From Promethearchaeota archaeon (lineage in GTDB: Archaea; Asgardarchaeota; Lokiarchaeia; Sigyniarchaeales; SOKP01): a stretch of DNA of 64,000 bases. Positions 5,945-38,039 of the stretch are shown one piece after another. The notes beneath the pieces are model-generated. The model saw nothing but the letters and a program-made list of their open reading frames with translations. It was not told where the DNA came from and did no database searches. The position numbers were made by a program, and so were the translations under genes. The DNA lies in the NCBI GenBank assembly GCA_030599585.1, contig JAUVNS010000008.1, positions 96,001 through 160,000 of the forward strand. Reading direction: 5' to 3'. Numbering within the stretch: position 1 is the first letter of the stretch; the number at the start of each line of letters is the position of its first letter.

Positions 5945-8900
5945 AATTCACCTCCATCTTTGATTCCTTTTTTATTATAACTCTGCTCTTTGGATAGTGA
6001 AACTAGTCGGTCTCTTAAGGTATTTTCAACTTTTAGAACCGAATCGCTGTGTGATACTTTAAAGAGCAATAATTCGTTCCTTTGAAGTTCATACTTATTA
6101 GCCTTATATTTCTTAGTTTTCCAAATGAAAATCGTTAAAATAGTAAGAGCTACAAAAGCTGGACCTAGTACAAATAAAATATTAACTTCTTCTGGGATTA
6201 TCACTTTAACTTCAATAGAATTCGATCTTTCTATTACTTTTTGTAAGTAGAAGTATTCAATACTCGCAGGTTTCAGCCAGATTAAAACTTGTTTAGTCGC
6301 TTGAATTTTATAGGAAAATGTAATTTCCTCACCTGGTTGCAAACTCGGAGCAGTAAAAATAAGACTTCCGCTTATTAATTCAAACTCAATATTTGTAAAG
6401 CCAATTGCGTCACTAATGGTAATATTTTTCGCACAAATATTCCCGGTGTTAGTAACCGTTATGTTTACGGTAATAATATCCCCAATTTCTATTTGATCTT
6501 GATTAACCGATTTTATTATTGAAAAATTGATAAAACCAAGAATTAATGGCCTTGAAGAGGCAATTTGAATCGTGTTCTCCTCTAGGCAACTGAAATAATT
6601 GACTGAAGGATAGTAGTACCCTTTCCATCCAATTTTTTTTACAGAAATAGTAGAATTTATTAACTCATTGTACATAATTTCTGGCGTAACCACATTCAAC
6701 TTTCCAATAGGTGCTAAGTCTCCGTATTGATCGTTAAATGCAAGTGATATATTTGGAATCATTAATCCCGCAAATCCAGTATTTCTAATATAAATTGACA
6801 AGTTAAATTTTTCATCGATATCAGGAGCTAGAGTTGTGGAATTACAATAAATCTCAATCGTCCTAATATAAGGATTACGGGATAAATAATCGATTGGAGC
6901 AGAAAAATACACATCGTTTGGATGAGACTCTAATGTTGTAGAATTTAAATTTTGAATAAATTCTAAATTGTTATAGCTAATTGTTGTATTGCTAATTGTA
7001 GCCGTATTTGGAATGTAAAAAGAAAAAGAAATTTGTTTTTTCTCAGAGGGTGCAAGTTCAAAAATAGAATACTTTAGATAGTCTTTTTCGATTGTAAAGT
7101 TGAAAGGGTTATGAATAATTCCGGGGACCATAATTGATATATTAATATTTCTTGCGATATTTGATCCTACATTGCTAAAAACTAATGTGTAGTTATTTAT
7201 CACTCCCGTACTTGAACTATAGCTAGATAAGTAAGCATATGAGGTAATAGACGCCATATTGTAAGTACTTAAAGAGATGGTATTTGATATTTTAATGTAT
7301 TCAACTTTACCGCTTAAAGAAGTATAAATAACTCTAGAGCCTAAAACGGTATATTCGTTAACATCTCTGTAATAAAATTCTATATCTAAATCATTAATAG
7401 AAATATTAAATTTGTTAGAATTGATTCCCTTTACTTTTAAAATAATTGAATGGTTGTTTCTATTGGCAGGATCAAAAATCCATTCAAGTGTCCCTTGGTT
7501 TTTAATAAATGTGTAGGTTGCTGTGTTATTAATTGTTGTAGTCAAATACGGGGATATATCTTCAAAAACCTCCGAAGAAAAATTAAAAACTTCAAAATTC
7601 AAAACATCGGTAGTGTCTGTGTAATTAACAACAATTGAAATGCGATCTAAAGAATTGTTCGTTAGATCTATCACAGTTTCGTTCATAAAAAGAAAGTGTA
7701 CCTCGATTTCGTATTGATCAACATATTTCTGTTCTGATTCGAGTATCCATTCTTGGTTATCGTTGTTTAACGCCATTTGAGGTGAAGTTCCTTCAATTGA
7801 TAACCCCGAAATAATCGAAGGTATCTGTGGAAAATTTTCTTTAAGAGTAAAATTATATCTGTAAAAAGAAGAAAATGTATCAAAACCCTCAATTGAAAAA
7901 TTATCATTTGTATAAGAAAACGCTTCATTTGGTTCTAACTTCCAATTTTCACTATTCCAAATACTCTGTTCATTCGTGAAAGTATCTTTTAGCGATTCTG
8001 AAGATTGACCTATTGCGTCTAATGAAGAAATTAATTGTGGGTTACCTATTGCAATTAAATCTATCACATGATCCATATTTTCATTATAGGGTAAAAAATT
8101 AGTGAGATTGTTAATATCTGGAAAATAAATATCTACTATTCCTGTTCCTGTTGTATCAAAATAAAAAATGCGTGGATTCTTATCAAAGTTAAAAAAATCC
8201 TCCAAAGAAGTGTATTGACCAGCATACTCAATTCTGACAACCTCCCATATAGATTCTTTAAGATCTTCATCAAGTCCTAAAAGAACTCCGATTGGTCCCA
8301 CAATTATAGGAAAAATATCATCAAGTTCTATAGGTATTGAAGTAGGAACCCCCCAAGCAGTTTCGTTCCCTACATTTATGGCAGTAATATTAAATGAAAA
8401 GTCTTTATAAACTCCATTTGAGGCATTACCACCAATTAAGTCTTTTGTAATTACTAAATTTGGTTCTGAATTTGAAATTTTATATGTAATAACTAGCTCT
8501 TCAATTGGATTAAAAATTCCTGTAGGTATTCCTGGCAACCCTTGAATTCCGATCGCGTGTAGAAAATTTATAACATCTGCTTGATCGTTTAGGTTTACAG
8601 GTTTAACATAACTTTGCTTAAACCCATTGTCGTTAACCCAGAATAATTCAAACGAATAATCTTTTAGCGCTTGGATATCAAACTCTATTTCAGCGTAGTA
8701 AAGTAATAAGCCGATTTGCTCTAAAAGAAAGTCATAAAGTGTGAAATAGGAGGGTGTTGCATCGATTACATCAGTACAAAAAATATTAACATTAATTTCA
8801 CTCATAAAAGCGCCTATTAAAGAAATAAATATCTTTTCACTAGGTTTGAGCGACTCTCCTTGATATCCCATAGCATCCCATAAATTAAAACGATATTCGT

Positions 8901-27762: not shown

Positions 27763-30423
27763 CTAATACGATGGCATTATAAATAAAGAAATAGGAAAAA
27801 ATGGAATAAAAAAACTAATAGGTAAAAAAATCGTTAGTATAAATATAGAGATTAATCCAGGTAGGAGGCTTCCGGTTTTTAAATAAATATATCCTAAGAT
27901 TAAGCTAATAAAGCTTGAACATATAAAATCTAAAATAACTAATGATATAATATAGGAAGATGAAACACCGGGAGATATATATGAAAAAATGGGAATGATG
28001 TAGACGAAGGCTTTTACGATGATAGTGATGAAAGTTTGCAATAATAGCGCCCATAATTGGGAGTATTTACCTACTAACATTGTTAGAATGATACCGCGAT
28101 GTAGTATCTCCTGCCAATAACAAAAAGTAAAAAGAGTTAATAAGATAACTATTATCTGTAAGTAACTTAAATTCAGTGAAGGTAAGTCTAATATTGCTTG
28201 AGTTATGAAGTAGATAATGAAGATCGAAGGAATAGTAAATAATATTGCTTTAATATGCTTTTTAAAAAAATTACTTTTCACCCAACTTAACCCTATGCAA
28301 TCTAAATATTGTTTAAACGGTTGTTTCCCATATGGAAGTCCAACATACTTAGGAATGACATATAACCATATAAAACCATAAAGAAGATTTGGTACTAAGA
28401 TAATTAATAAATTTTGAATTAACAATTTCAGATCTTCACTAAAGGAACGCGGGAGAAAAAAGGGATATGGGTCTATCATGGAAGAAAGGATTGCCATAAC
28501 TAAACTTATAAGAAAAAACAATAAGAAATTGATGATAAGTAGGATTACTATTGATAACCAAATATGTTTAGAGAATATTGTTGGGACAATATTTTTTTTA
28601 AGCGTTTTTTCCCTTGAAAAAAAGTCCTTATTAAAATCAGTCCATTTAGTTATGAGCCCTCCTTGATAAACTGGCAACATTATGTTAAAAATTAAGACTG
28701 AAATTAAGAATCCTAATACTATTACTGCCCAAAATAGAACCAACATACTATTGCTATCCTGGTGGTATAAAAAATTTATCCCAAACGATGTTATCCAAAA
28801 AAAAAGGATGTATGGCACAGAGATAATCAATGTCCATTTATACATTCGGTTTTTTGGATTATAATCTTCTAACACGTAAAATTTTGCTCTCTTTTTTCCG
28901 AAGAAGTTGATTTTTAAAATAAAAATGATTAATAAAAATAACCAAGCAAAGGGTAATGTGAAAAGGAAATTAATGAAGATAGATACAAAATTTGGAGAGC
29001 TAAGGTAAAGTAAAGATGGTAAGAGAGTTGCGCATGTTTGGATAAAATAGATTAATAATAATTTAGGTTTTGCTTGGTTTCGTGGAATTAGTGGTAAAGC
29101 GGCTATAATCGATTCTCCCCGATTATCAAAATTAGTTAAACCATAAACTATTAATCCTGAAAGAATAGGGCTAAAAGTTAATATACCAATCCAATTTTGG
29201 AAGAACCCTCTATCAAGTAGATTTATTGTTCCGATATCTTTAATCCCAAATGCTACGATAAAAATAAAAGAAAGCATTATCGGCATAATAATTGACATAA
29301 AAACTTTAAGATCTCTTGTAATTATGCGAAGATCCTTGCGAATATAAGCAATAAACGGTACACTAGGTTTTACATTCACTTTCACTTCTAAATGAGATGG
29401 TTTAGTAGTTTTTATTATGTTGATAGCTTTAAGCTTTGAAACGCTAATTCTCTCAATTGCTTTAAACGCTTTTCTAGATATCCCATATGTTATTATAACT
29501 AATAGTGCAAATCCAATTAGAGTACTTATCCAAAGTTGGAGAGATGCATGATTAGGCGCGATTAATAAAGAAATTAAAAAACTAGAATTAAATGGGAAAG
29601 GAATAAAACTCAAAATAATATTAATTATGGATTGGTATTCGGAAGCTGTAAATATAATGTAAAACGTCTCTATTGAGCTAAGGAACCATTGAATCAAAAC
29701 ATAACTACTGATGATGATAAAAATGTAACTCAGAATATTGATTAAGCGAATAAATAAAGTTCTTTTTGAGCTCTTATCATTTATATCTAAAATTCTATTT
29801 ATTCTTTCTCCAAATAATAATAAAATGCTAAATGATAATATCATATTCACAAAAGAAATTCCAAGGCATACCAAAAAAATTACTATATTTTGACTTCCAA
29901 TTAACATAGTAATCGGAAAGGCAAAAACTAAAACAATTATTGGTAAATCATAACTTCGAAATAAAGTAAAATAAACTATTCTCAAATATTTTCTTTTTGA
30001 AATGGGTAATGTCTCGAACCACTCAAAAATTTTCCCTGAGGTTATCATTGCTGTATCCAACATCCCCATTACAAAAAAACTTAGAAACTGTAAAGAAAAA
30101 TAAAAGGAAAAAAGTAAACCTCCTATAAAATAAACACCTTCAATTGATGTCGAACCCTGCGAAATAAGTCTGACAATTTCGAAATAGGTTAATAAAGGAA
30201 GTACAGGTATTATTCCAAATGTGATCGCAAAAAATAATTTTGTTAAAATAACTTTAAATTTTAGTCTAAACGGATGGCGGATATATTTTTCTAAATAGTA
30301 AGATTTAGCTCCTCCCTTCGATAATACTAATTCTTCAACAAGCAATTCTTTACTTGCATATTTTGCTAAACTAAATGATGTAAGAACCTCTTCTACCTTT
30401 AGATTTCTTCTTTTTATCTTCAT
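27763..30423 (-). CDS. ABC-2-type exporter permease-like protein fused to a degenerate CPBP (CAAX/Abi) domain
   Basis: TLPIS and ALPL..R..AKPK EAA-like loops, YIRKDLRIITRD linker; C-terminal WQEILHRG and YIYLKTGSLLPG. Confidence 0.65.
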   Translation of the reverse strand: MKIKRRNLKVEEVLTSFSLAKYASKELLVEELVLSKGGAKSYYLEKYIRHPFRLKFKVILTKLFFAITFGIIPVLPLLTYFEIVRLISQGSTSIEGVYFIGGLLFSFYFSLQFLSFFVMGMLDTAMITSGKIFEWFETLPISKRKYLRIVYFTLFRSYDLPIIVLVFAFPITMLIGSQNIVIFLVCLGISFVNMILSFSILLLFGERINRILDINDKSSKRTLFIRLINILSYIFIIISSYVLIQWFLSSIETFYIIFTASEYQSIINIILSFIPFPFNSSFLISLLIAPNHASLQLWISTLIGFALLVIITYGISRKAFKAIERISVSKLKAINIIKTTKPSHLEVKVNVKPSVPFIAYIRKDLRIITRDLKVFMSIIMPIMLSFIFIVAFGIKDIGTINLLDRGFFQNWIGILTFSPILSGLIVYGLTNFDNRGESIIAALPLIPRNQAKPKLLLIYFIQTCATLLPSLLYLSSPNFVSIFINFLFTLPFAWLFLLIIFILKINFFGKKRAKFYVLEDYNPKNRMYKWTLIISVPYILFFWITSFGINFLYHQDSNSMLVLFWAVIVLGFLISVLIFNIMLPVYQGGLITKWTDFNKDFFSREKTLKKNIVPTIFSKHIWLSIVILLIINFLLFFLISLVMAILSSMIDPYPFFLPRSFSEDLKLLIQNLLIILVPNLLYGFIWLYVIPKYVGLPYGKQPFKQYLDCIGLSWVKSNFFKKHIKAILFTIPSIFIIYFITQAILDLPSLNLSYLQIIVILLTLFTFCYWQEILHRGIILTMLVGKYSQLWALLLQTFITIIVKAFVYIIPIFSYISPGVSSSYIISLVILDFICSSFISLILGYIYLKTGSLLPGLISIFILTIFLPISFFIPFFPISLFIMPSY

Positions 30424-30580
30424 TTGAAACCCAGAATAGCCATCTCTAAAGTAATATTAATCATGTAAAAATATAAAATTAATCCAATTCCAATTAGTAT
30501 TGTTGGAATAAATAGTAATTTCTTCTCATTTTCACTCATTTCTCTTTTGGTATGCTTTTCCTTATTAAAGATTCTGTAAT

Positions 30581-30880
30581 TTATTGATTCTTTAAAGATT
30601 TTCTGAATGCTCGAACCTTACTAAATGTATAAGAAAATATACCAATACATATAGCACTGGCAAGAAAGTTAGAGATGGACAATGATAAAGTATAGGAATA
30701 TGTAAGTTTATCGTATGGAAAAATATTAGTCCTGGCATAAATTAAAACAGGAACTGCAAAGAATATTGCTACTGCGAAAAATGAGGAACCAGTACTACTC
30801 AGAACACTTAAATAAATTGCCCGTTTTTTCGTTAACCTTATACCGAGCCATCTTATTTCATTATTTTTGTTTTTTTCCAT
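30581..30880 (-). CDS. Small 2-TM membrane protein
   Basis: 99 aa, two hydrophobic helices, GGGTGA SD upstream. Confidence 0.7.
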   Translation of the reverse strand: MEKNKNNEIRWLGIRLTKKRAIYLSVLSSTGSSFFAVAIFFAVPVLIYARTNIFPYDKLTYSYTLSLSISNFLASAICIGIFSYTFSKVRAFRKSLKNQ

Positions 30881-31080
30881 AGTTTTATTTTCACCCTTGT
30901 GTGTTATTTTATAATTTCATTCTTTGTTATTTAACCATTTTGTTACCCTTCTATTTGATATAAAAAACTGAAGTGAGAATGTGTTCCGGAGTTTTTATTG
31001 ATTTTTTAAAATATAAAAAGCTTTAGAGAAAAAAGGTTCGAAAATAACATTTTAAAAATAAAGGTTAAAAAAAAAATAAT

Positions 31081-31155
31081 TTAATACCTTACTGCGGCAA
31101 TATGATATCCCGTTGGGTTTAGGATTGATTTGGCTCCCTTTTCTTTTCTTTTCAT
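31081..31155 (-). CDS. Small peptide A1 (24 aa) MKRKEKGAKSILNPTGYHIAAVRY
   Basis: SD GAGGT 8 nt upstream of ATG; 15/24 identical to paralog at 32964. Confidence 0.8.
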   Translation of the reverse strand: MKRKEKGAKSILNPTGYHIAAVRY

Positions 31156-31250
31156 ATTCTTTTACCTCGTTTTTTTAATTTGGTTTTGTTTTGTGTAGTA
31201 TTTGTCGTTAAATTGTGAATTTTTAATTATTCTAAAAAAAATTATAATTA

Positions 31251-31325
31251 CTAAAATATATCAAAACGGTCAGGAATATATCCTGCGTTTCTGATTATTA
31301 TCGTTCTTTTCTCTTTTTCTTCCAT
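31251..31325 (-). CDS. Small peptide B1 (24 aa) MEEKEKRTIIIRNAGYIPDRFDIF
   Basis: SD GAGGT upstream; tandem stops TAG TAA; 17/23 identical to paralog at 33155. Confidence 0.8.
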   Translation of the reverse strand: MEEKEKRTIIIRNAGYIPDRFDIF

Positions 31326-31389
31326 CTTTTTTTACCTCGCTTTTTATTCTTTTTTTTATTGGTTTAAAAAATATTAAAAAAAATTTATA

Positions 31390-31464
31390 TTAAAATCTAA
31401 AAACTAAATTCTCTGGATTGAAGTTTTTCGTAAATTTAACTTCTTTTACTCTGGTTTTACTCAT
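31390..31464 (-). CDS. Small peptide C1 (24 aa) MSKTRVKEVKFTKNFNPENLVFRF
   Basis: SD AGGAGGT upstream; 17/24 identical to paralog at 33310. Confidence 0.82.
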   Translation of the reverse strand: MSKTRVKEVKFTKNFNPENLVFRF

Positions 31465-31723
31465 AAGCTTTTACCTCCTTTTTTTTTTTTTTATTTTTTA
31501 TTTTTGTTATTAAATTATAATATCCATAAAATCCATATTTAGTTTTCAGATCAAAACTCTGAATGGACTTTTAAATATTTATTGAACTGTATTAGGAAGA
31601 AATCGATTTGGCAGGGTAAACGACATCAAAAATAGCAGAAATTAAGAATTCAAAAAAACAATAAAGGATCGTTATTTACATCGACAGATAAACTAAGTGA
31701 GAAATAACCAAAATTCCAGAGTA

Positions 31724-32623
31724 TTAACGGTATAAATTGGTCCCTCTTCCTAATATTTCTTTCACAACTCGTTTGTTTGCCTGAAAAGGATTTATAATCT
31801 TCTTTTTTGGAAATTCTAAAGGAGGTGTAAAGACTTGTTCTTTTTCGATCAGTAAATTATAGGCTTGATGTAAGAGAAACTCGAGATTGATAACGTCTTC
31901 GTTGTTATAGGCAAGCAATGTATCAAGATATTCTTTCTCTTTAGTTTGTTTATATTTTTTCCACAAGAGCACAGCAGAATAGCCGTCCAAGTCTTCAAGA
32001 GCTCCGCGCGAAATCCCAAACCTTTTTTCAATTTTTTTTAACCCCCCCTTTATCTGTAATCTCCTGAGTAAAAAACACACATCATAATGGATCTGGTTAA
32101 AATCGATTCCCATTTCGTGTTGGATGAATGGAATATCAAAAGATTTACCGTAAAAAGTTGTTATTGCTGGAAATTTCGAAATAAACGCGGGAAATTCGTC
32201 TAAGTTATCACCTCGGACAAAATCGTGAACGCTCACTCCATCGTAAACGGCAATAGTCGTTATATGGCTATAGTGAGGGCTTAAACCCGTGGTTTCAATA
32301 TCAAGGTAAGCAATACTGTCAATTAAGTTTGGAATCATCTTCCAATGTTGTATTTTGGGTATAAGGCTTGTTAATTGGGAAATATCGAGGATTTTTAGCG
32401 CTTCTATTGCTGAATTGACACCATTCCATATTGCGTTCCATTTTTGTTTTGGAAACAGTTCAGGACACTGCTTTTTTATCACATCGTTCCAACAGCATAT
32501 CCCTAATTCTCTGAGTGTCGTTTCTGCCTTAACGCCAATCCCTTTTACAAAAGTAAACGAGTTAAACAGTGGATGGTCATTTTCTAAAGATAAATCGTCG
32601 TCTCTTATCACGATTTCTTTCAC
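31724..32623 (-). CDS. RNase H-like (YprB/DEDD) exonuclease with N-terminal helix-hairpin-helix
   Basis: VKGIG HhH; YLDIETTG, FYGKSFDIPF, HYDV, GGLKKIE, YNNEDV motifs. Confidence 0.88.
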   Translation of the reverse strand: MKEIVIRDDDLSLENDHPLFNSFTFVKGIGVKAETTLRELGICCWNDVIKKQCPELFPKQKWNAIWNGVNSAIEALKILDISQLTSLIPKIQHWKMIPNLIDSIAYLDIETTGLSPHYSHITTIAVYDGVSVHDFVRGDNLDEFPAFISKFPAITTFYGKSFDIPFIQHEMGIDFNQIHYDVCFLLRRLQIKGGLKKIEKRFGISRGALEDLDGYSAVLLWKKYKQTKEKEYLDTLLAYNNEDVINLEFLLHQAYNLLIEKEQVFTPPLEFPKKKIINPFQANKRVVKEILGRGTNLYR

Positions 32624-32707
32624 ACTATTAGTTTGAGATGTATTAAAGATAATTTTTTAGTAATAAGTTACAATTTGAAATCGCATATTTAAACTTTTTG
32701 GGTAATG

Positions 32708-32738
32708 TACGGAGCGTATCTAAATAATACGCAGCGTA
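32708..32738. promoter_or_regulatory. Two TACG-N3-CGTA palindromic boxes 20 bp apart upstream of the exonuclease gene
   Basis: TACGGAGCGTA (32708-32718) and TACGCAGCGTA (32728-32738); TTTAAA box at 32688-32693. Confidence 0.5.
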
Positions 32739-32776
32739 AGTAAAGTAAAACATAAATATTGGTTCCAACTTTTAAC

Positions 32777-32830
32777 CAAAACAAAACAAAACAAAACAAA
32801 AAAACAAAACAAAACAAAATCAAAACAAAA
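32777..32830. repeat. (CAAAA)n pentanucleotide tract; (UUUUG)n on the minus strand, possible terminator
   Basis: About 10 imperfect CAAAA units downstream of peptide cassette 2. Confidence 0.75.
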
Positions 32831-32963
32831 TCTCTGCTTTTGCATTCGTTCGCGATTGGTTTATCATTTTAGAAGAGATTTTATTTCCCCATCTGAATCT
32901 CTTATTAAAAAATTGGTTGTAATTCTAAAAATAAAGTGGTTTAAAAATAGTTAAAAAAAATAA

Positions 32964-33038
32964 TTAATATCTTAATGTTGTAATATGATATCTCGTCGGG
33001 TTTAGGATTGTTTGGGTATCCATTTCTTTTCTTTTCAT
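32964..33038 (-). CDS. Small peptide A2 (24 aa) MKRKEMDTQTILNPTRYHITTLRY
   Basis: SD AAGGT upstream; paralog of A1 with synonymous changes. Confidence 0.78.
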   Translation of the reverse strand: MKRKEMDTQTILNPTRYHITTLRY

Positions 33039-33154
33039 ATGCTTTTACCTTGGTTTTTTAATATGGTTTTTTAATTATGTGTAGTATTTGTCGTTAAATC
33101 GCAATTTTTTATTGTTATTAGGTTATTATTATAGAAAAAATGTGTTAATTACAT

Positions 33155-33226
33155 TTACATATCAAAACGGTCAGGAAAATATCCGCCGTTTCTGATGATT
33201 ATCGTTCTTTTCTCGCTATTTTTCAT
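33155..33226 (-). CDS. Small peptide B2 (23 aa) MKNSEKRTIIIRNGGYFPDRFDM
   Basis: SD GAGGT upstream; paralog of B1. Confidence 0.8.
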   Translation of the reverse strand: MKNSEKRTIIIRNGGYFPDRFDM

Positions 33227-33309
33227 TTTTTTTTACCTCGCTTTTTTTTTGGGTTTTGTTTATTTTCTTTTTTGGTTATTGGTGGAAAAATTATTAAAAA
33301 AAATTATTT

Positions 33310-33384
33310 CTAAAATCTTAAAACTAAATTTTCAGGATTGAAGTTTTTCGCAAATCTAACTTCTTTTATTTCGGTTCTTTCCAT
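33310..33384 (-). CDS. Small peptide C2 (24 aa) MERTEIKEVRFAKNFNPENLVLRF
   Basis: SD AGGAGGT upstream; paralog of C1. Confidence 0.82.
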   Translation of the reverse strand: MERTEIKEVRFAKNFNPENLVLRF

Positions 33385-33457
33385 GATTTTTTTACCTCCT
33401 TTTTTTGGTTTTTTTTTTTTTTTTAATTCCTGGTGTTTTATTTTTAAAATTTTTTAA

Positions 33458-33745
33458 TTAAAAATTGATTAGATTATTTCTATATGCCAAAATTCTCGTA
33501 TCAAGGTTCGCATTCACAGCGTTTATGCATTTGACTTCCTCGTTAATTTTCGCATTTAATTTAACTTTATTGAACACTTTCCTAAGTTTCTTTTTAATCG
33601 ATTGTGATTCAAGTTTTTCAGTCGTAGCCTTCCTGACCAGCACCTGAGGCCGTAGCACCTCAGGTGCTTGGAGTTGGAAAGGAACCTGGCTATCGATGCT
33701 GGCGCTTTTTTCCTCTGCTTGTTTTTTTATTGTTGCTTGAGCCAT
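33458..33745 (-). CDS. Small basic hypothetical protein (95 aa), first gene of peptide cassette 2 transcript
   Basis: ATG at 33745 (MAQATIKK...) preceded by GTGAT SD-like site; ORF track starts at GTG 33757. Confidence 0.65.
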   Translation of the reverse strand: MAQATIKKQAEEKSASIDSQVPFQLQAPEVLRPQVLVRKATTEKLESQSIKKKLRKVFNKVKLNAKINEEVKCINAVNANLDTRILAYRNNLINF

Positions 33746-33811
33746 TTTTCTTATCACATCCTTTTTTTTTTTTTTCAGTTTTCTTTTTTTTGTTTCTAAT
33801 TTTATTTAGTT

Positions 33812-33887
33812 CCGAAGTTTAATATAGTTTGACTTCTTGAAGTTCGAACGAACTTCGAACTTCGGTGCGAATCGCAAACCTTAAATA
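33812..33887. promoter_or_regulatory. Divergent promoter with nested inverted repeats
   Basis: GAAGTTCG-AA-CGAACTTC (33839-33856), CCGAAGTT/AACTTCGG (33812-33819/33858-33865), TGCGA-A-TCGCA (33866-33876); TATA-like boxes at 33818-33826 (-) and 33881-33886 (+). Confidence 0.65.
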
Positions 33888-33909
33888 CCTACAAGACCAT
33901 AATATAACT

Positions 33910-36876
33910 ATGAGTATAACAAAATATCCACCTGAAGGTATAATTACACCTATGAAAATCAACAAAGATTTTGAATATATTATACTCTGGATGCTCTATA
34001 ACAACGATCACTGCACTTGGTCTGAATTTAAGTCAAAACCTGTAAACATTAGTCCAGCGACATTATCAAAATACTTGAATATTTTGATAAGTAACGGTCT
34101 TATTGAGAAGGAAAAGAAAGGAGAGTATAGGATTACCCCTGAAGGTCGGATACAATATGCGGAGTTACAGGTTAAAGGCTCATTGGAGAAATCTCTGAAT
34201 TATCCTCCTGAGATTATAACAAAAACTAGGGAATATGATCATTGGATTCTCTGGATGCTTTATAATAATGCGTATTGTAAGTGGTCCGATTTTATTGAAC
34301 CCCCTCTTTCAATCAATCAATCTTCATTATCAAAAAACCTGAATCTTTTATTAGATAAAGATCTCATTGAAAAAAATAATCGTGAGTATAGAGTTACAAG
34401 GGACGGTGAAATAGAGTACTTCAAAGTGTTAAAAACATATGATTTAGATCGCCAATCAATATTGGACGAAGAAAGCAAAAGAGTTGAAGTCATTACAGAT
34501 AAGGTTGGCAAATTCTTTGACGAATACAAGATAGAAGATGATGAGATTAGATATCGTTTCTTGAACATGGTCTTAAGGTTAGATTATACTAAGGTTGAGG
34601 CTACTTTGTCAGACGAGGTAGATTTTGATAAAATTTTGTTATTTTTATCGATAAATCACCCTAACAATTATCCTAATTATATTACAGCAAAAGATTTTGC
34701 GTTAGAGTATGATATAAAGCTAACAACATTGGACTTTTTTATAGAAAAAATCGTGGAAGATAAACTTTACGCGATTAAATTCTTTAAATTAAATGTTGAC
34801 AGTAAAATTACATATTACATCCAAGCTGAAGAAAGATTAGAAAAAATGTTAGGCGTAATCATTGAAGACTATATTAGGAAGTTCACATATTTGAGTAAGT
34901 TTCAGAAAAAAAATGGAGATCAATATCAAACGCCTGATATCAACCAATTACTCTACAATGTCCTAGAAGATTTATGTAATAATCTATTCAATGAAGGATT
35001 GAAACAGCCACTCAGGAAATTTTTAATCGAATATATTGAACATTTAGCATATAAATTTGAAACAGAGAAGAGTTTAATTAACCATACAGATAAAATAAAG
35101 GGGATTGCGTTTCAAAATGTGTTTGAAGTAATACAAAGCTTTGGAACATCGGAGACGGTGAATACGATAAGCACCCCTCCTGATAATGAATCCTTTTACT
35201 TTTTGCACAATAGAATTTTTGACACATTGGACATACTGTATTTATCGAAAATAGATTATATTCGAACCGCTGAGTTCAAAGAGACATATTTTCCGAAAAA
35301 TGGAGAATTTTTAACGAAGATTGAGCGTAAATTGGCGAAAGGAAGAGTATTGAAAGTAAACGAACTGCTTACTGCTAATCTTAAGAATCTAAGCGAAATA
35401 GAATTGATGATCCTGAAGGATTTAATTTACACATATAACGGAGAATTAGAAGAGTCACTAAACCTAACAAAAGAAATCATAGAAGCTCATCCTAACGAAT
35501 ATGTAGGGTATCTTTTTCAAGCCATTTCATATTTTTTTATGGGAAGATTCAAGGAAGCGTTGGATATTATCGAATTAGGTTTGAACATGTCCTATAATGT
35601 CTTGTTGATCTCTCAAAAAGCGCAAATTCTCATTAATTCCGATCACAAAAAAGCACTTGAAGTCGTAGATGAAGTTATTGAAGATTATCCAGATAATTTC
35701 GCTTTAGCACGCACGAAATTTCTAATTGAAATGACGGATAAAGAATGCTGCATACGAAATATTGACGAACCTTTGAATTTGATAAATTCACTTATAAGCT
35801 CGAATCCTGACGATTCAGAACTCTCAATACTAAAAGCGATATTATACATTGTGACCAATAAGTATAAGGAAGCAAAAAACTGGATTAAACAGACCGTAGA
35901 ATTCAATTTACTTAAAGGTAGTCCGAGAGTTGATACTGCTGCGTACTTAATACTATCATATTCATATTTAGCTAGGGGTAAATTTGAAAAGGCTTTAGAT
36001 ATTGTCAGCAAAGTCAGATTTCACTATCCAAATCACCCACTTTCACATATTATTACTGGTTTAGTTCACGGATTCAACATAGTCTACAAATTCGATCCAA
36101 GTAAAGCAAACAAAGAGCTATTTAGAGAAGAATTTCAGAAAGCAGAAGCAAATGAACAGAGTAAGAAGAAGTTGTCTAGGTATTATCAACTGGAAAGTTA
36201 TATTTTGAATGAGATAGATGGTCTTGAAGAGGCAATAAAAGTAATCGATAAAGCAATTAAATTAAGTCCGGAGCACTACGATATTCATAGCACAAAAGCC
36301 CATCTATATTTAGCCTATAGCGATAAAGGAGAAGAAGTTTTAGCATTTTACGATGAATTATTAGAGAAATTCCCTACTGAAGATAAAAGCATTCGCCAGA
36401 TGAAATCATTCTCTTATTTTGCGATGGGAAATGTAACAGAAGGAATTAAAATTCTTAAAGAAGGTCTTAAAGTTTACCCTGATGCGATAGGAATGTTAAA
36501 CAACCTCGCCGTATTCTTAAGTGATACAGGAAAATTTGAAGAAGCTTTGGAGACAATTGAAAAAGCTATTGAAATTGACCCACTCGAAGCAAATCTATAC
36601 GATACATACGGAGAAATATTAATGTTTGGTAAGGATTACAAATCAGCTATAGAAAAATTTTATCAAGCGTTAGAGATGAGTCCAACGGGATGGTTTAGGT
36701 TTCATACATTCTTAAAACTCTCGAAATGTTATCAAAGTCTAGGAATGCTTGAGGAAGCTACAACCTGCCACGATAAAGCAAAAATTTTAACGGAAAAAGT
36801 TATACCTGGAAAAAGAAAGGTATATTTAGATCAATTAGAAGCGAGTTTTGAAGATTTAACCACTTCTGAAAAGTAA
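33910..36876 (+). CDS. Tandem winged-helix DNA-binding domains + C-terminal TPR array (putative transcription regulator)
   Basis: Duplicated YPPE...ILWMLYNN..C.WS.F...LSK.LN.L....LIEK...EYR.T..G units; TPRs such as LNNLAVFLSDTGKFEEALETIEKAIEIDP; ATG 33910 preferred over GTG 33865. Confidence 0.85.
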   Translation: MSITKYPPEGIITPMKINKDFEYIILWMLYNNDHCTWSEFKSKPVNISPATLSKYLNILISNGLIEKEKKGEYRITPEGRIQYAELQVKGSLEKSLNYPPEIITKTREYDHWILWMLYNNAYCKWSDFIEPPLSINQSSLSKNLNLLLDKDLIEKNNREYRVTRDGEIEYFKVLKTYDLDRQSILDEESKRVEVITDKVGKFFDEYKIEDDEIRYRFLNMVLRLDYTKVEATLSDEVDFDKILLFLSINHPNNYPNYITAKDFALEYDIKLTTLDFFIEKIVEDKLYAIKFFKLNVDSKITYYIQAEERLEKMLGVIIEDYIRKFTYLSKFQKKNGDQYQTPDINQLLYNVLEDLCNNLFNEGLKQPLRKFLIEYIEHLAYKFETEKSLINHTDKIKGIAFQNVFEVIQSFGTSETVNTISTPPDNESFYFLHNRIFDTLDILYLSKIDYIRTAEFKETYFPKNGEFLTKIERKLAKGRVLKVNELLTANLKNLSEIELMILKDLIYTYNGELEESLNLTKEIIEAHPNEYVGYLFQAISYFFMGRFKEALDIIELGLNMSYNVLLISQKAQILINSDHKKALEVVDEVIEDYPDNFALARTKFLIEMTDKECCIRNIDEPLNLINSLISSNPDDSELSILKAILYIVTNKYKEAKNWIKQTVEFNLLKGSPRVDTAAYLILSYSYLARGKFEKALDIVSKVRFHYPNHPLSHIITGLVHGFNIVYKFDPSKANKELFREEFQKAEANEQSKKKLSRYYQLESYILNEIDGLEEAIKVIDKAIKLSPEHYDIHSTKAHLYLAYSDKGEEVLAFYDELLEKFPTEDKSIRQMKSFSYFAMGNVTEGIKILKEGLKVYPDAIGMLNNLAVFLSDTGKFEEALETIEKAIEIDPLEANLYDTYGEILMFGKDYKSAIEKFYQALEMSPTGWFRFHTFLKLSKCYQSLGMLEEATTCHDKAKILTEKVIPGKRKVYLDQLEASFEDLTTSEK

Positions 36877-36908: not shown

Positions 36909-38039
36909 TTATTTTTTATGTTCTTTTACGAGTTTTACCAAGTCTGCTTTCCTATAAGAAGCGAGCACTTTAAGATCGTTTTCAATACAATATTCTTTTA
37001 GTTTTTTTACCGTCCACTTGTTATAATCAAGCGGTTGTTCAGTGATTTCTTGAAGGGGTCCACCTCGGATGAGGTTAATAATTTGCGCTTTTCTATAGGA
37101 TGTTGGAACTGAAATGTTGTTTTCTTTGCAGTATAGTTTCAATTTCTTTACTGTCCAGGAATTGTAGTCTATTTCGTCTTTCTCTTCTATAATTTTTTCT
37201 TCAATTTTGGAAGTATCAAGTTTTTGGAGAATTTCTATTCCCTCAATACTACCAGAATTGGAATCAACATAGAGTCTTATAGTTCGATCTTTAAGTTCAA
37301 TTGGTCCTTCTGGTATTGAACTAACAGGTTCCCATTCGGTTTCCTCTATCTCTTTCCCGAAAACTTTTGCTTTTTTGACTGCTGCTCCGTAAATTTGAAA
37401 ATTCCCTAAAATCAAATTTTGTCTTTTAAAAGTAGCGGGAACTTTGTTTTTCACAATTTTATTAATCAATTTTTTATTATCTAACTTAGGTGGTTTGATT
37501 GTCTGTTGAGGTTTAGGGGCAATGACATAATCCTTCTTTTTTCCAATTAATGTGGATTTAACGTCACCATTAAGAGTCGGAGGTGGACCTTGCCATCCGT
37601 GAACCTTTTTATCTTTAGTTTCTGCAGATTCCTTGAGAGAAGACTGGTGTAAATGTTTAAACTCTATAGAGTTTCTTTCTAAGATTTCAGGAACTTCGGC
37701 TGTTTTAAAATTAAAGGCTCTCATAAATTCGTTGGGTTCATCTCCTTGATCTACTGAAATAATCTTACATCGATGGAAGTGGCTGTTAACAACTAAATCG
37801 TTTTGTAATTCAGCGGCAATCCGAGATGCTATAAATTTTTTCCTGACATGTGAATTGACGCCTTTCCAGATATAGATTCTCCTTAACCCCTCCTTGACAA
37901 TTATTAACACTTGGTTCGGATCTAATACATCTTGACCATTATTCAACAGAAAGGTATCTTCAGAAATATCTAACTTGACTTTTTCTCCGGTACTTTCTAG
38001 TCCAAAGATCATAAAGTTCTCATAAATTTCAGACATCAT
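36909..38039 (-). CDS. Gelsolin-domain protein with two C-terminal SAP/HeH(Rho-N)-like domains
   Basis: VLIIV...IYIWKG.NS...KF.AS..A..L...VDQGDEP.EF gelsolin signature; YNSWTVKKLKLYCKEN...RKAQII and YNKWTVKKLKEYCIEN...RKADLV repeats. Confidence 0.8.
   Translation of the reverse strand: MMSEIYENFMIFGLESTGEKVKLDISEDTFLLNNGQDVLDPNQVLIIVKEGLRRIYIWKGVNSHVRKKFIASRIAAELQNDLVVNSHFHRCKIISVDQGDEPNEFMRAFNFKTAEVPEILERNSIEFKHLHQSSLKESAETKDKKVHGWQGPPPTLNGDVKSTLIGKKKDYVIAPKPQQTIKPPKLDNKKLINKIVKNKVPATFKRQNLILGNFQIYGAAVKKAKVFGKEIEETEWEPVSSIPEGPIELKDRTIRLYVDSNSGSIEGIEILQKLDTSKIEEKIIEEKDEIDYNSWTVKKLKLYCKENNISVPTSYRKAQIINLIRGGPLQEITEQPLDYNKWTVKKLKEYCIENDLKVLASYRKADLVKLVKEHKK

Follow-up and report, generated by a model that had tools for sequence, protein, structure and literature searches.

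In the RRNPP systems of Bacillota and of their phages and plasmids, such as Rgg/SHP, ComR/ComS and PrgX/PrgQ, the gene of a 17-25-aa peptide is divergent from that of a cytoplasmic regulator which joins a helix-turn-helix (HTH) domain to repeats of the tetratricopeptide (TPR) type, with a dyad between the two genes. RRNPP pro-peptides carry an export signal, are processed to a mature peptide of 5-10 aa and are re-imported by Opp. Binding of extended peptides or of C-terminal tails is common among TPR superhelices (OGT, TTC7, APC3 and Tom70 are examples), and PEX5, Hop/CHIP and APC3 are TPR receptors for short C-terminal motifs (PTS1, EEVD and the IR tail respectively). In the archaeon Methanosarcina mazei, the 23-aa protein sP26 binds glutamine synthetase. 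Here we describe a locus in a 64,000-nt stretch of DNA (the window) from a Promethearchaeota archaeon (assembly GCA_030599585.1, contig JAUVNS010000008.1, positions 96,001 to 160,000). Its minus strand carries two cassettes, each with the gene order C-B-A, with six open reading frames (ORFs) of 23-24 aa, next to the gene of a ~94-aa protein (c5) and to a divergent gene for a double winged-helix/TPR protein (c1). Judged by comparison with relatives, the six ORFs are genuine and conserved micro-protein genes, and it is well supported that c1, c5 and one to three micro-ORFs form a conserved module in one family of Loki-type Asgard archaea. We consider the peptides as candidate partners or signals for c1. 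Literature searches gave no account of these peptides, of archaeal RRNPP-like systems or of archaeal peptide/TPR-regulator cassettes, and the c1/c5/micro-ORF module is undescribed. The peptide family is also absent from annotations and protein databases, because genes of 22-26 codons fall below the standard gene-caller cut-off.

Cassette 2 (32953-33424) is the syntenic copy, adjoining c5 and c1. Its first gene, C2 (33310-33384), encodes 24 aa, with GGAGGT 9 nt before the ATG and a T8 tract 7 nt past the stop; it is followed by B2 (33155-33226; 23 aa, GAGGT with an 8-nt spacer, T6 tract) and A2 (32964-33038; 24 aa, AAGGT with an 8-nt spacer, T8 tract). Cassette 1 (31070-31504) is composed of C1 (31390-31464), its first gene, B1 (31251-31325) and A1 (31081-31155), each of 24 aa. 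The original prediction, made from the letters of the window alone, had placed the six ORFs at these same positions, five of them with exactly 24 aa. A Shine-Dalgarno (SD) sequence, GAGGT or GGAGGT, lies 8-9 nt before the ATG of all six (in A2 it reads AAGGT as given above), and an oligo-T tract of T5-T10 is found 4-15 nt past the stop of every one of them.

The two cassettes are 77-83% identical at the nucleotide level over their full length, spacers included. This is similar to the divergence between species, and a copy of the cassette-1 type is also found in another genome (G024), so that the duplication is old. The B-A spacer contains a non-coding block (31184-31225, minus strand; twin at 33070-33111), situated 40-60 nt ahead of the A start codon. 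This block is 83% identical between the two copies and also conserved in three other genomes (G002, G031 and G034); it is probably a promoter or 5′ leader of gene A. Cassette 1 possesses its own upstream promoter-like region, common to the G024 cassette and to a cassette linked to the aEF2 gene (see below). The two copies may be specificity variants, as suggested earlier, but there is a single adjacent regulator, c1.

We examined the coding status of the ORFs by comparing the two window copies. The amino acid identities reported earlier were exact (A1/A2 15/24, B1/B2 17/23, C1/C2 17/24) and the synonymous changes listed with them are real. The coding-type substitution pattern claimed on this basis was nevertheless not borne out: the ratio of non-synonymous to synonymous differences per site (pN/pS) was 0.72 for A, 0.88 for B and 0.98 for C (pooled 0.84), differences fell on the three codon positions as 7/2/4, 3/3/6 and 4/4/5 respectively, and identity was 0.82 in the ORFs compared with 0.81 in the aligned spacers. 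The ORFs had also been described as free of indels next to spacers of variable length. The spacers indeed contain 37 gap columns, but the ORFs contain one, due to the earlier stop of B2. This indel pattern is the sole asymmetry in favour of coding, and the window pair alone thus shows a coding signal only weakly.

A genome search returned Loki-type Asgard archaea as relatives, and a DNA search of 60 of them detected the cassette in many genomes of the same genus. At each of these loci, the corresponding sequences form ORFs of 22-26 aa that begin with ATG, are preceded by an SD and keep their order. With a family B profile of 23 positions we obtained 28 full-length matches at E 1e-4 or better; they lie in open frames of only 23-34 aa, and 27 of them are without a stop. 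At E<=0.1, 18/41 species genomes of the genus matched the profile, and 17 of these 18 account for the 28 full-length matches, while no match below E 0.004 was found outside the genus. Family C orthologs were present in 12 or more loci and those of family A in 8, weak-SD copies included. The comparison of orthologs, proposed earlier as a check on selection, supported coding units under constraint, with SD, ATG and frame retained: pooled in-frame pN/pS was 0.53 for B, 0.71 for C and 0.59 for A, compared with 0.85-1.04 in the shifted frames of B and C, in which stops occupy 10-14% of codons. Family A is uninformative when taken alone, since it comprises 5 sequences and its frames do not separate (0.51 in the +1 frame). 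Altogether more than 50 diverged copies are intact, with indels in multiples of three and invariant SD and ATG. Losses are rare (a frameshifted A gene in G150, a TAG in G026, C missing in G034 and G020), and family B is the most stable member. It is this retention of SD, ATG, frame and length by relatives, together with the in-frame constraint, which shows that the six ORFs are coding.

The SD sequences provided a further indication. They are complementary to the 3′ end of the 16S rRNA of the same genome, CACCUCCU, the rRNA terminating in GGAUCACCUCCU. SD sequences are reported to be rare in Lokiarchaea (PMC12993045), and GAGGT or GGAGG was found upstream of only 160 of the 3634 long ORFs (4%) of this genome. 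Among intergenic ORFs of 15-40 aa combining an SD with a T-run, 28 were counted genome-wide and 10 of them belong to the present family, which excludes a chance origin of the six ORFs. Strong SD sites, rare in this group, are here concentrated on a special class of micro-genes. A scan of 30400-34000 against Rfam gave just a chance-level match to CrcZ.

The regulator gene c1 extends on the plus strand from 33910 to 36876, divergent from c5 and the peptides, and its product matches HTH_45/MarR and many TPR families of Pfam. The protein begins with two winged-helix domains, continues with a helical middle region and ends in a superhelix of ~12 TPRs; in an AlphaFold2 model, residues 545-988 form a 24-helix superhelix (predicted local distance difference test score, pLDDT, 85.7). 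By sequence and structure this part resembles OGT, TTC7B, SPINDLY, subunits of the APC (APC3), Tom70 and LbcA. RRNPP receptors were not among its 50 best Foldseek matches, and phmmer against the PDB gave only canonical TPR proteins. The longest c1 ORF begins at a GTG at 33865, but orthologs begin at an ATG equivalent to 33910, with an N-terminus of the MS-I/V-x-K-F/Y-PPEG type, and 33910 is therefore likely to be the start. Next to the regulator, the minus strand encodes a protein of 376 aa (c4; 36909-38039) that contains a gelsolin repeat and, at its C-terminus, SAP/HeH domains; this neighbour is conserved in 11 species.

A nested palindrome with half-sites GAAGTTCG and CGAACTTC occupies positions 33812-33865, 45-100 nt before the c1 ATG, and includes the GTG mentioned above. 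The 11-mer at its core occurs once in the 4.85-Mb genome, and similar half-sites occur at the same place in two relatives (G005 and G034), which makes it a candidate operator. An operator of this type was also considered as a link between c1 and cassettes located elsewhere, and rejected since the core occurs solely upstream of c1. Between the palindrome and cassette 2 lies c5 (33458-33742), directly upstream of the cassette and co-oriented with it. The gene is conserved in 10 loci of the genus, and a c5-like gene of 69-83 aa occupies the corresponding place in modules of distant paralogs and in another genus (g28). Its product had no Pfam or PDB match.

Orthologs of c1 were identified in 14 genomes of the genus. 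They belong to a family with many paralogs of ~640, ~830 and ~1000 aa, up to 11 per genome. The N-terminal 417 residues of c1 have a match in 106/134 genomes of the taxonomic family. They have none in the 14 genomes from the neighbouring family, which include complete genomes of ~4.4 and 6 Mb, or in five complete or near-complete genomes from other genera. The peptides were found in three genomic contexts. The first, in 13 species and including cassette 2 of the window, has a divergent c1 of ~990 aa, c5 of ~95 aa and C-B-A. In the second, a C′-B′ pair lies between the genes of the CCA-adding enzyme and aEF2; in the genome under study it is on contig C34 (47716-47934; positions 7917-8135 of locus L071), ~230 nt before aEF2, with aIF5B and a GNAT gene upstream. 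This retention of a peptide pair inside a translation-factor neighbourhood, next to the CCA-adding tRNA nucleotidyltransferase, extends to 8 species. The third context, in several species and on contig C45 of this genome (4733-4968; locus L069), combines B′ with C′′, a 32-aa variant with a different and longer C-terminus, and has GNAT, HAD, CDP-alcohol phosphatidyltransferase and thioredoxin-like genes as neighbours. The C34 and C45 paralogs were recovered by DNA search and ORF scan, whereas tblastn of the six peptides against the same genome returned only the two window copies.

The association with c1 extends beyond close orthologs. Paralogs only 38-46% identical to c1 likewise have micro-ORFs of 21-29 aa, each with an SD and a T-tract, upstream on the divergent strand and usually past a c5-like gene; the sequences of these peptides differ but their design is the same. 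SD-led and terminated ORFs of 18-33 aa numbered 41 in 46 kb of upstream-divergent flank (24/27 loci), compared with 2, 2 and 0 in three control combinations of flank and strand and a genome-wide background of ~0.015 per kb per strand. Genus g28 has ~990-aa paralogs accompanied by a c5-like gene and a single B-like ORF of 24-29 aa at 9 of the 18 loci with usable flank. Conversely, when the peptide profile was searched in g28 without reference to c1, it matched in 17/54 genomes, and 14 of the 20 loci had a c1-family gene within 1.5 kb, 3 more having a c5-like ORF. The architecture of the module is thus retained down to ~40% c1 identity, and one genome, G014, carries two modules with different peptides. 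Other members of the c1 family have different partners: on contig C21 of the genome under study, one paralog (102977) faces a 183-aa Ras-like GTPase at ~102770 and another (~115700) a 65-aa c5-like ORF, while the window module has c5 and SD-led peptides of 22-26 aa and no GTPase. These data supply a concrete set of conserved partners: regulator, ~95-aa protein, peptides and candidate operator.

Each of the three peptide families displays a characteristic motif. In family B, an invariant III strand precedes a turn of the N-x-G-Y type, and the C-terminus is mostly D/E-F; family C has an F-N-P-x-N turn and an R/K-F/Y end, and family A an invariant ILNPT-x-Y segment and an R-F/Y end. Profile comparison left B and C, as well as A and C, unaligned, in accordance with the earlier statement that the families do not align with each other. 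This does not hold for A and B: the family A profile aligned over its full length with a broad B-like profile (hhalign probability 86%, E 5.6e-6). Since, in addition, the three tandem peptides of G014 (contig C8) mix B and C features, the most likely origin of the C-B-A array is the tandem duplication of a single B-like gene. The 40 unique peptides adjacent to regulators measure 22-29 aa, with a mode at 23-24, and 28 of them end with F, Y or W, so that the proposed narrow length and conserved C-terminal residue were recovered in this larger set. We regard all of them as one fast-evolving superfamily of 21-29-residue peptides. Their N-terminus is variable and charged; it is followed by a short aliphatic strand (III/IIL type), a turn centred on Asn (of the NxG, NPTG or NPEN kind) and another strand, which usually ends with [RK/DE]-[FY]. 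In the middle of the peptides, Asn/Pro/Gly motifs have beta-branched and aromatic residues on either side, suggesting a beta-hairpin fold. The six window peptides are hydrophilic, with grand average of hydropathy (GRAVY) values from -0.6 to -1.07, and none of them has a signal peptide or hydrophobic segment (maximum 9-residue Kyte-Doolittle window 1.1 or less).

A direct connection between peptides and regulator can be proposed from these properties. Hydrophilic peptides, a cytoplasmic c1, diversification together with c1 paralogs, the frequent aromatic C-terminus and the peptide-binding habit of TPRs all favour binding to the TPR domain. In the reading that we favour, tentatively and as a whole somewhat short of an even chance, the peptides would bind the TPR superhelix and tune c1 on its operator. 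The peptides are the variable third component of the c1/c5 module. In this lineage an ancestral single B-like gene would have produced the C-B-A array, this array was then duplicated into cassettes 1 and 2, and C-B pairs were also copied to two other chromosomal sites. Lacking a signal peptide or hydrophobic segment, they would remain in the cytoplasm, which is the best supported of the proposed steps. Next in support comes their presumed hairpin fold, then binding to the c1 superhelix, probably via the conserved C-terminal strand and tail. Least supported is the last step, in which binding might modulate c1 occupancy of the palindrome and close a feedback loop on the c5-peptide unit. Among the agents considered earlier as imposing length and C-terminus, a receptor gains support, as a winged-helix TPR protein is the conserved divergent neighbour, while the ribosome tunnel loses it, given the T-tract proper to each ORF and the differing downstream genes. 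The original prediction had also offered a leader-plus-core precursor; this idea is not supported, because modifying enzymes, proteases and transporters are absent as conserved neighbours and the N-terminus is the variable part.

Several observations weigh against the tuning of c1 by its peptides. The c1 TPR domain shows no specific similarity to known peptide-pheromone receptors, and purifying selection is absent between the two window copies (pN/pS 0.84) and modest elsewhere. C-B pairs exist at two conserved sites without a nearby c1, one by the CCA-adding enzyme and aEF2 and the other by the GNAT, HAD and CDP-alcohol transferase genes. In the genome under study, four other c1 paralogs have no SD-led micro-ORF upstream. 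Three loci of ~1000-aa paralogs have c5 but no detectable peptide. Moreover, gene order within a genus can be inherited synteny, and independent support for the association amounts to ~5-6 paralog or genus groups rather than 27 loci.

The main alternative, which we judge unlikely although still to be taken seriously, is that the peptides are a regulated output instead of a ligand: c1 would sense something else through its TPR domain and switch on the c5-peptide unit, and the micro-proteins would act on other targets, for instance on housekeeping proteins, as their small inhibitors or adaptors, or, once released, as antagonistic peptides. The aEF2 and GNAT sites, where orphan C-B pairs are retained without an adjacent c1, accord with this, as do the position of the palindrome on the c1 side of the intergenic region and the pairing of c1 paralogs with other divergent partners (the Ras-like GTPase and the c5-like ORF). 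However, peptide sequences and c1 paralog groups change in concert, and one genome contains two modules whose peptides differ, so that a cognate pair of peptide and c1 is the simpler explanation. Neither a candidate target nor an exporter is a conserved neighbour. No conserved downstream target gene was detected; downstream genes vary between loci and are often on the opposite strand. An ABC-2/CPBP fusion downstream of cassette 1 (27763-30423) was considered as exporter or immunity partner and rejected, being present in merely 2/13 loci.

More doubtful is the possibility that the peptides are pheromones, as in RRNPP-like quorum sensing, or precursors of ribosomally synthesized and post-translationally modified peptides (RiPPs). 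In that case they would leave the cell, be cut down to a C-terminal core, be taken up again and be sensed by c1. The layout, with the palindrome between the genes and several pairs per genome, is like that of Rgg/SHP, ComR/ComS and PrgX/PrgQ, and the C-terminal halves are the conserved parts. Nevertheless, the peptides have no signal peptide or hydrophobic segment, and Pfam scans of neighbours in the three contexts revealed no conserved radical-SAM, YcaO, lanthipeptide, P450, peptidase or transporter gene, nor any conserved exporter, protease, Opp-type importer or modifying enzyme. Also, c1 is unrelated by sequence to RRNPP receptors, none of which appeared among its 50 best structural matches, and the most invariant residues of family B are those of the central III strand, not of a C-terminal core. 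It is similarly improbable, in our estimate, that each winged-helix TPR regulator is the receptor of its own 22-29-residue peptide or peptides, leaving and re-entering cells. If this were true, the regulator paralogs, up to 11 per genome, would constitute orthogonal peptide channels and the first peptide quorum-sensing-type system in Archaea.

It is very improbable that the conserved blocks are promoters, terminators or a small RNA and that the ORFs are incidental. The equal conservation of ORFs and spacers between the window copies, with a pN/pS of 0.84, and the very A/T-rich DNA would fit, but frames are open in the >50 diverged copies, indels come in threes, SD and ATG are invariant, the synonymous excess is confined to the ORF frame while shifted frames have stops in 10-14% of codons, and no Rfam family matched. 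Least probable of all are cis-acting leader peptides (upstream ORFs) controlling a downstream gene by translation or tunnel stalling: the length of 22-26 aa is comparable to that of arrest peptides such as TnaC and one paralogous pair lies ~230 nt upstream of aEF2, but a T5-T10 tract follows within 4-15 nt of each ORF, the genes that follow vary from locus to locus and often lie on the opposite strand, and two or three unrelated-looking serial ORFs, each with its own leader, are no attenuator design.

The remaining features of the locus lie outside the module. Between the two cassettes, a minus-strand gene (31724-32623) encodes a 299-aa protein of the RNase_H_2 superfamily (PF13482, E 1.4e-35); no counterpart was found in the orthologous loci of 12 other species, and it may therefore have arrived with or after the duplication. 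The spacer between this gene and cassette 2 includes a (CAAAA)n-type microsatellite of ~55 nt (32776-32830). The host genome is 4.85 Mb long with 32.6% G+C, and neighbours in the window include the gelsolin/SAP-domain protein, Ras-like GTPases and Cdc48. Elsewhere in this genome, SD-led micro-ORFs of 25-28 aa with T-tracts, unrelated to A, B and C, occur in tandem on contig C28 (16292-16378 and 16537-16614), with an identical copy on C8 (13221-13307). ORFs of 19-22 aa with an identical 16-nt SD-containing leader and an LPKDKNPGR-type core are located on C9 (150086-150154), C32 (190417-190476) and C39 (3597-3662), and may represent a repeated element or a small gene family.

Compared with described systems, the peptides would share with sP26 the status of an independently transcribed archaeal gene of ~23 codons, whose product acts by binding a large protein. 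There is no sequence relation between them, and sP26 lies outside any regulator module and is not multiplied in arrays. The TPR receptors PEX5, Hop/CHIP and APC3 provide a parallel of another kind, a long superhelix on the one hand and, in the candidate ligands described here, a conserved [RK/DE]-[FY]-COOH end on the other. Their ligands, however, are tails of large proteins and not free-standing products of 24 residues, and the receptors are not transcription factors. Differences from the RRNPP systems concern the archaeal host, a tandem winged helix instead of an XRE-type HTH, and a TPR domain which is a canonical superhelix of ~12 repeats without sequence match to receptors of the Rap, Rgg, NprR, PlcR, PrgX or AimR type. 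Unlike RRNPP pro-peptides, those described here are hydrophilic, have no export signal and no linked exporter, protease or Opp; an extra conserved gene for a protein of ~70-95 aa (c5) is present, and a module contains up to three different peptides. What the locus has in common with the RRNPP systems is the divergent arrangement of a short peptide gene and a cytoplasmic HTH and TPR-type regulator with a dyad between them, several distinct peptide/regulator pairs per genome, and peptides whose N-terminus is charged and whose C-terminal half is the more conserved.

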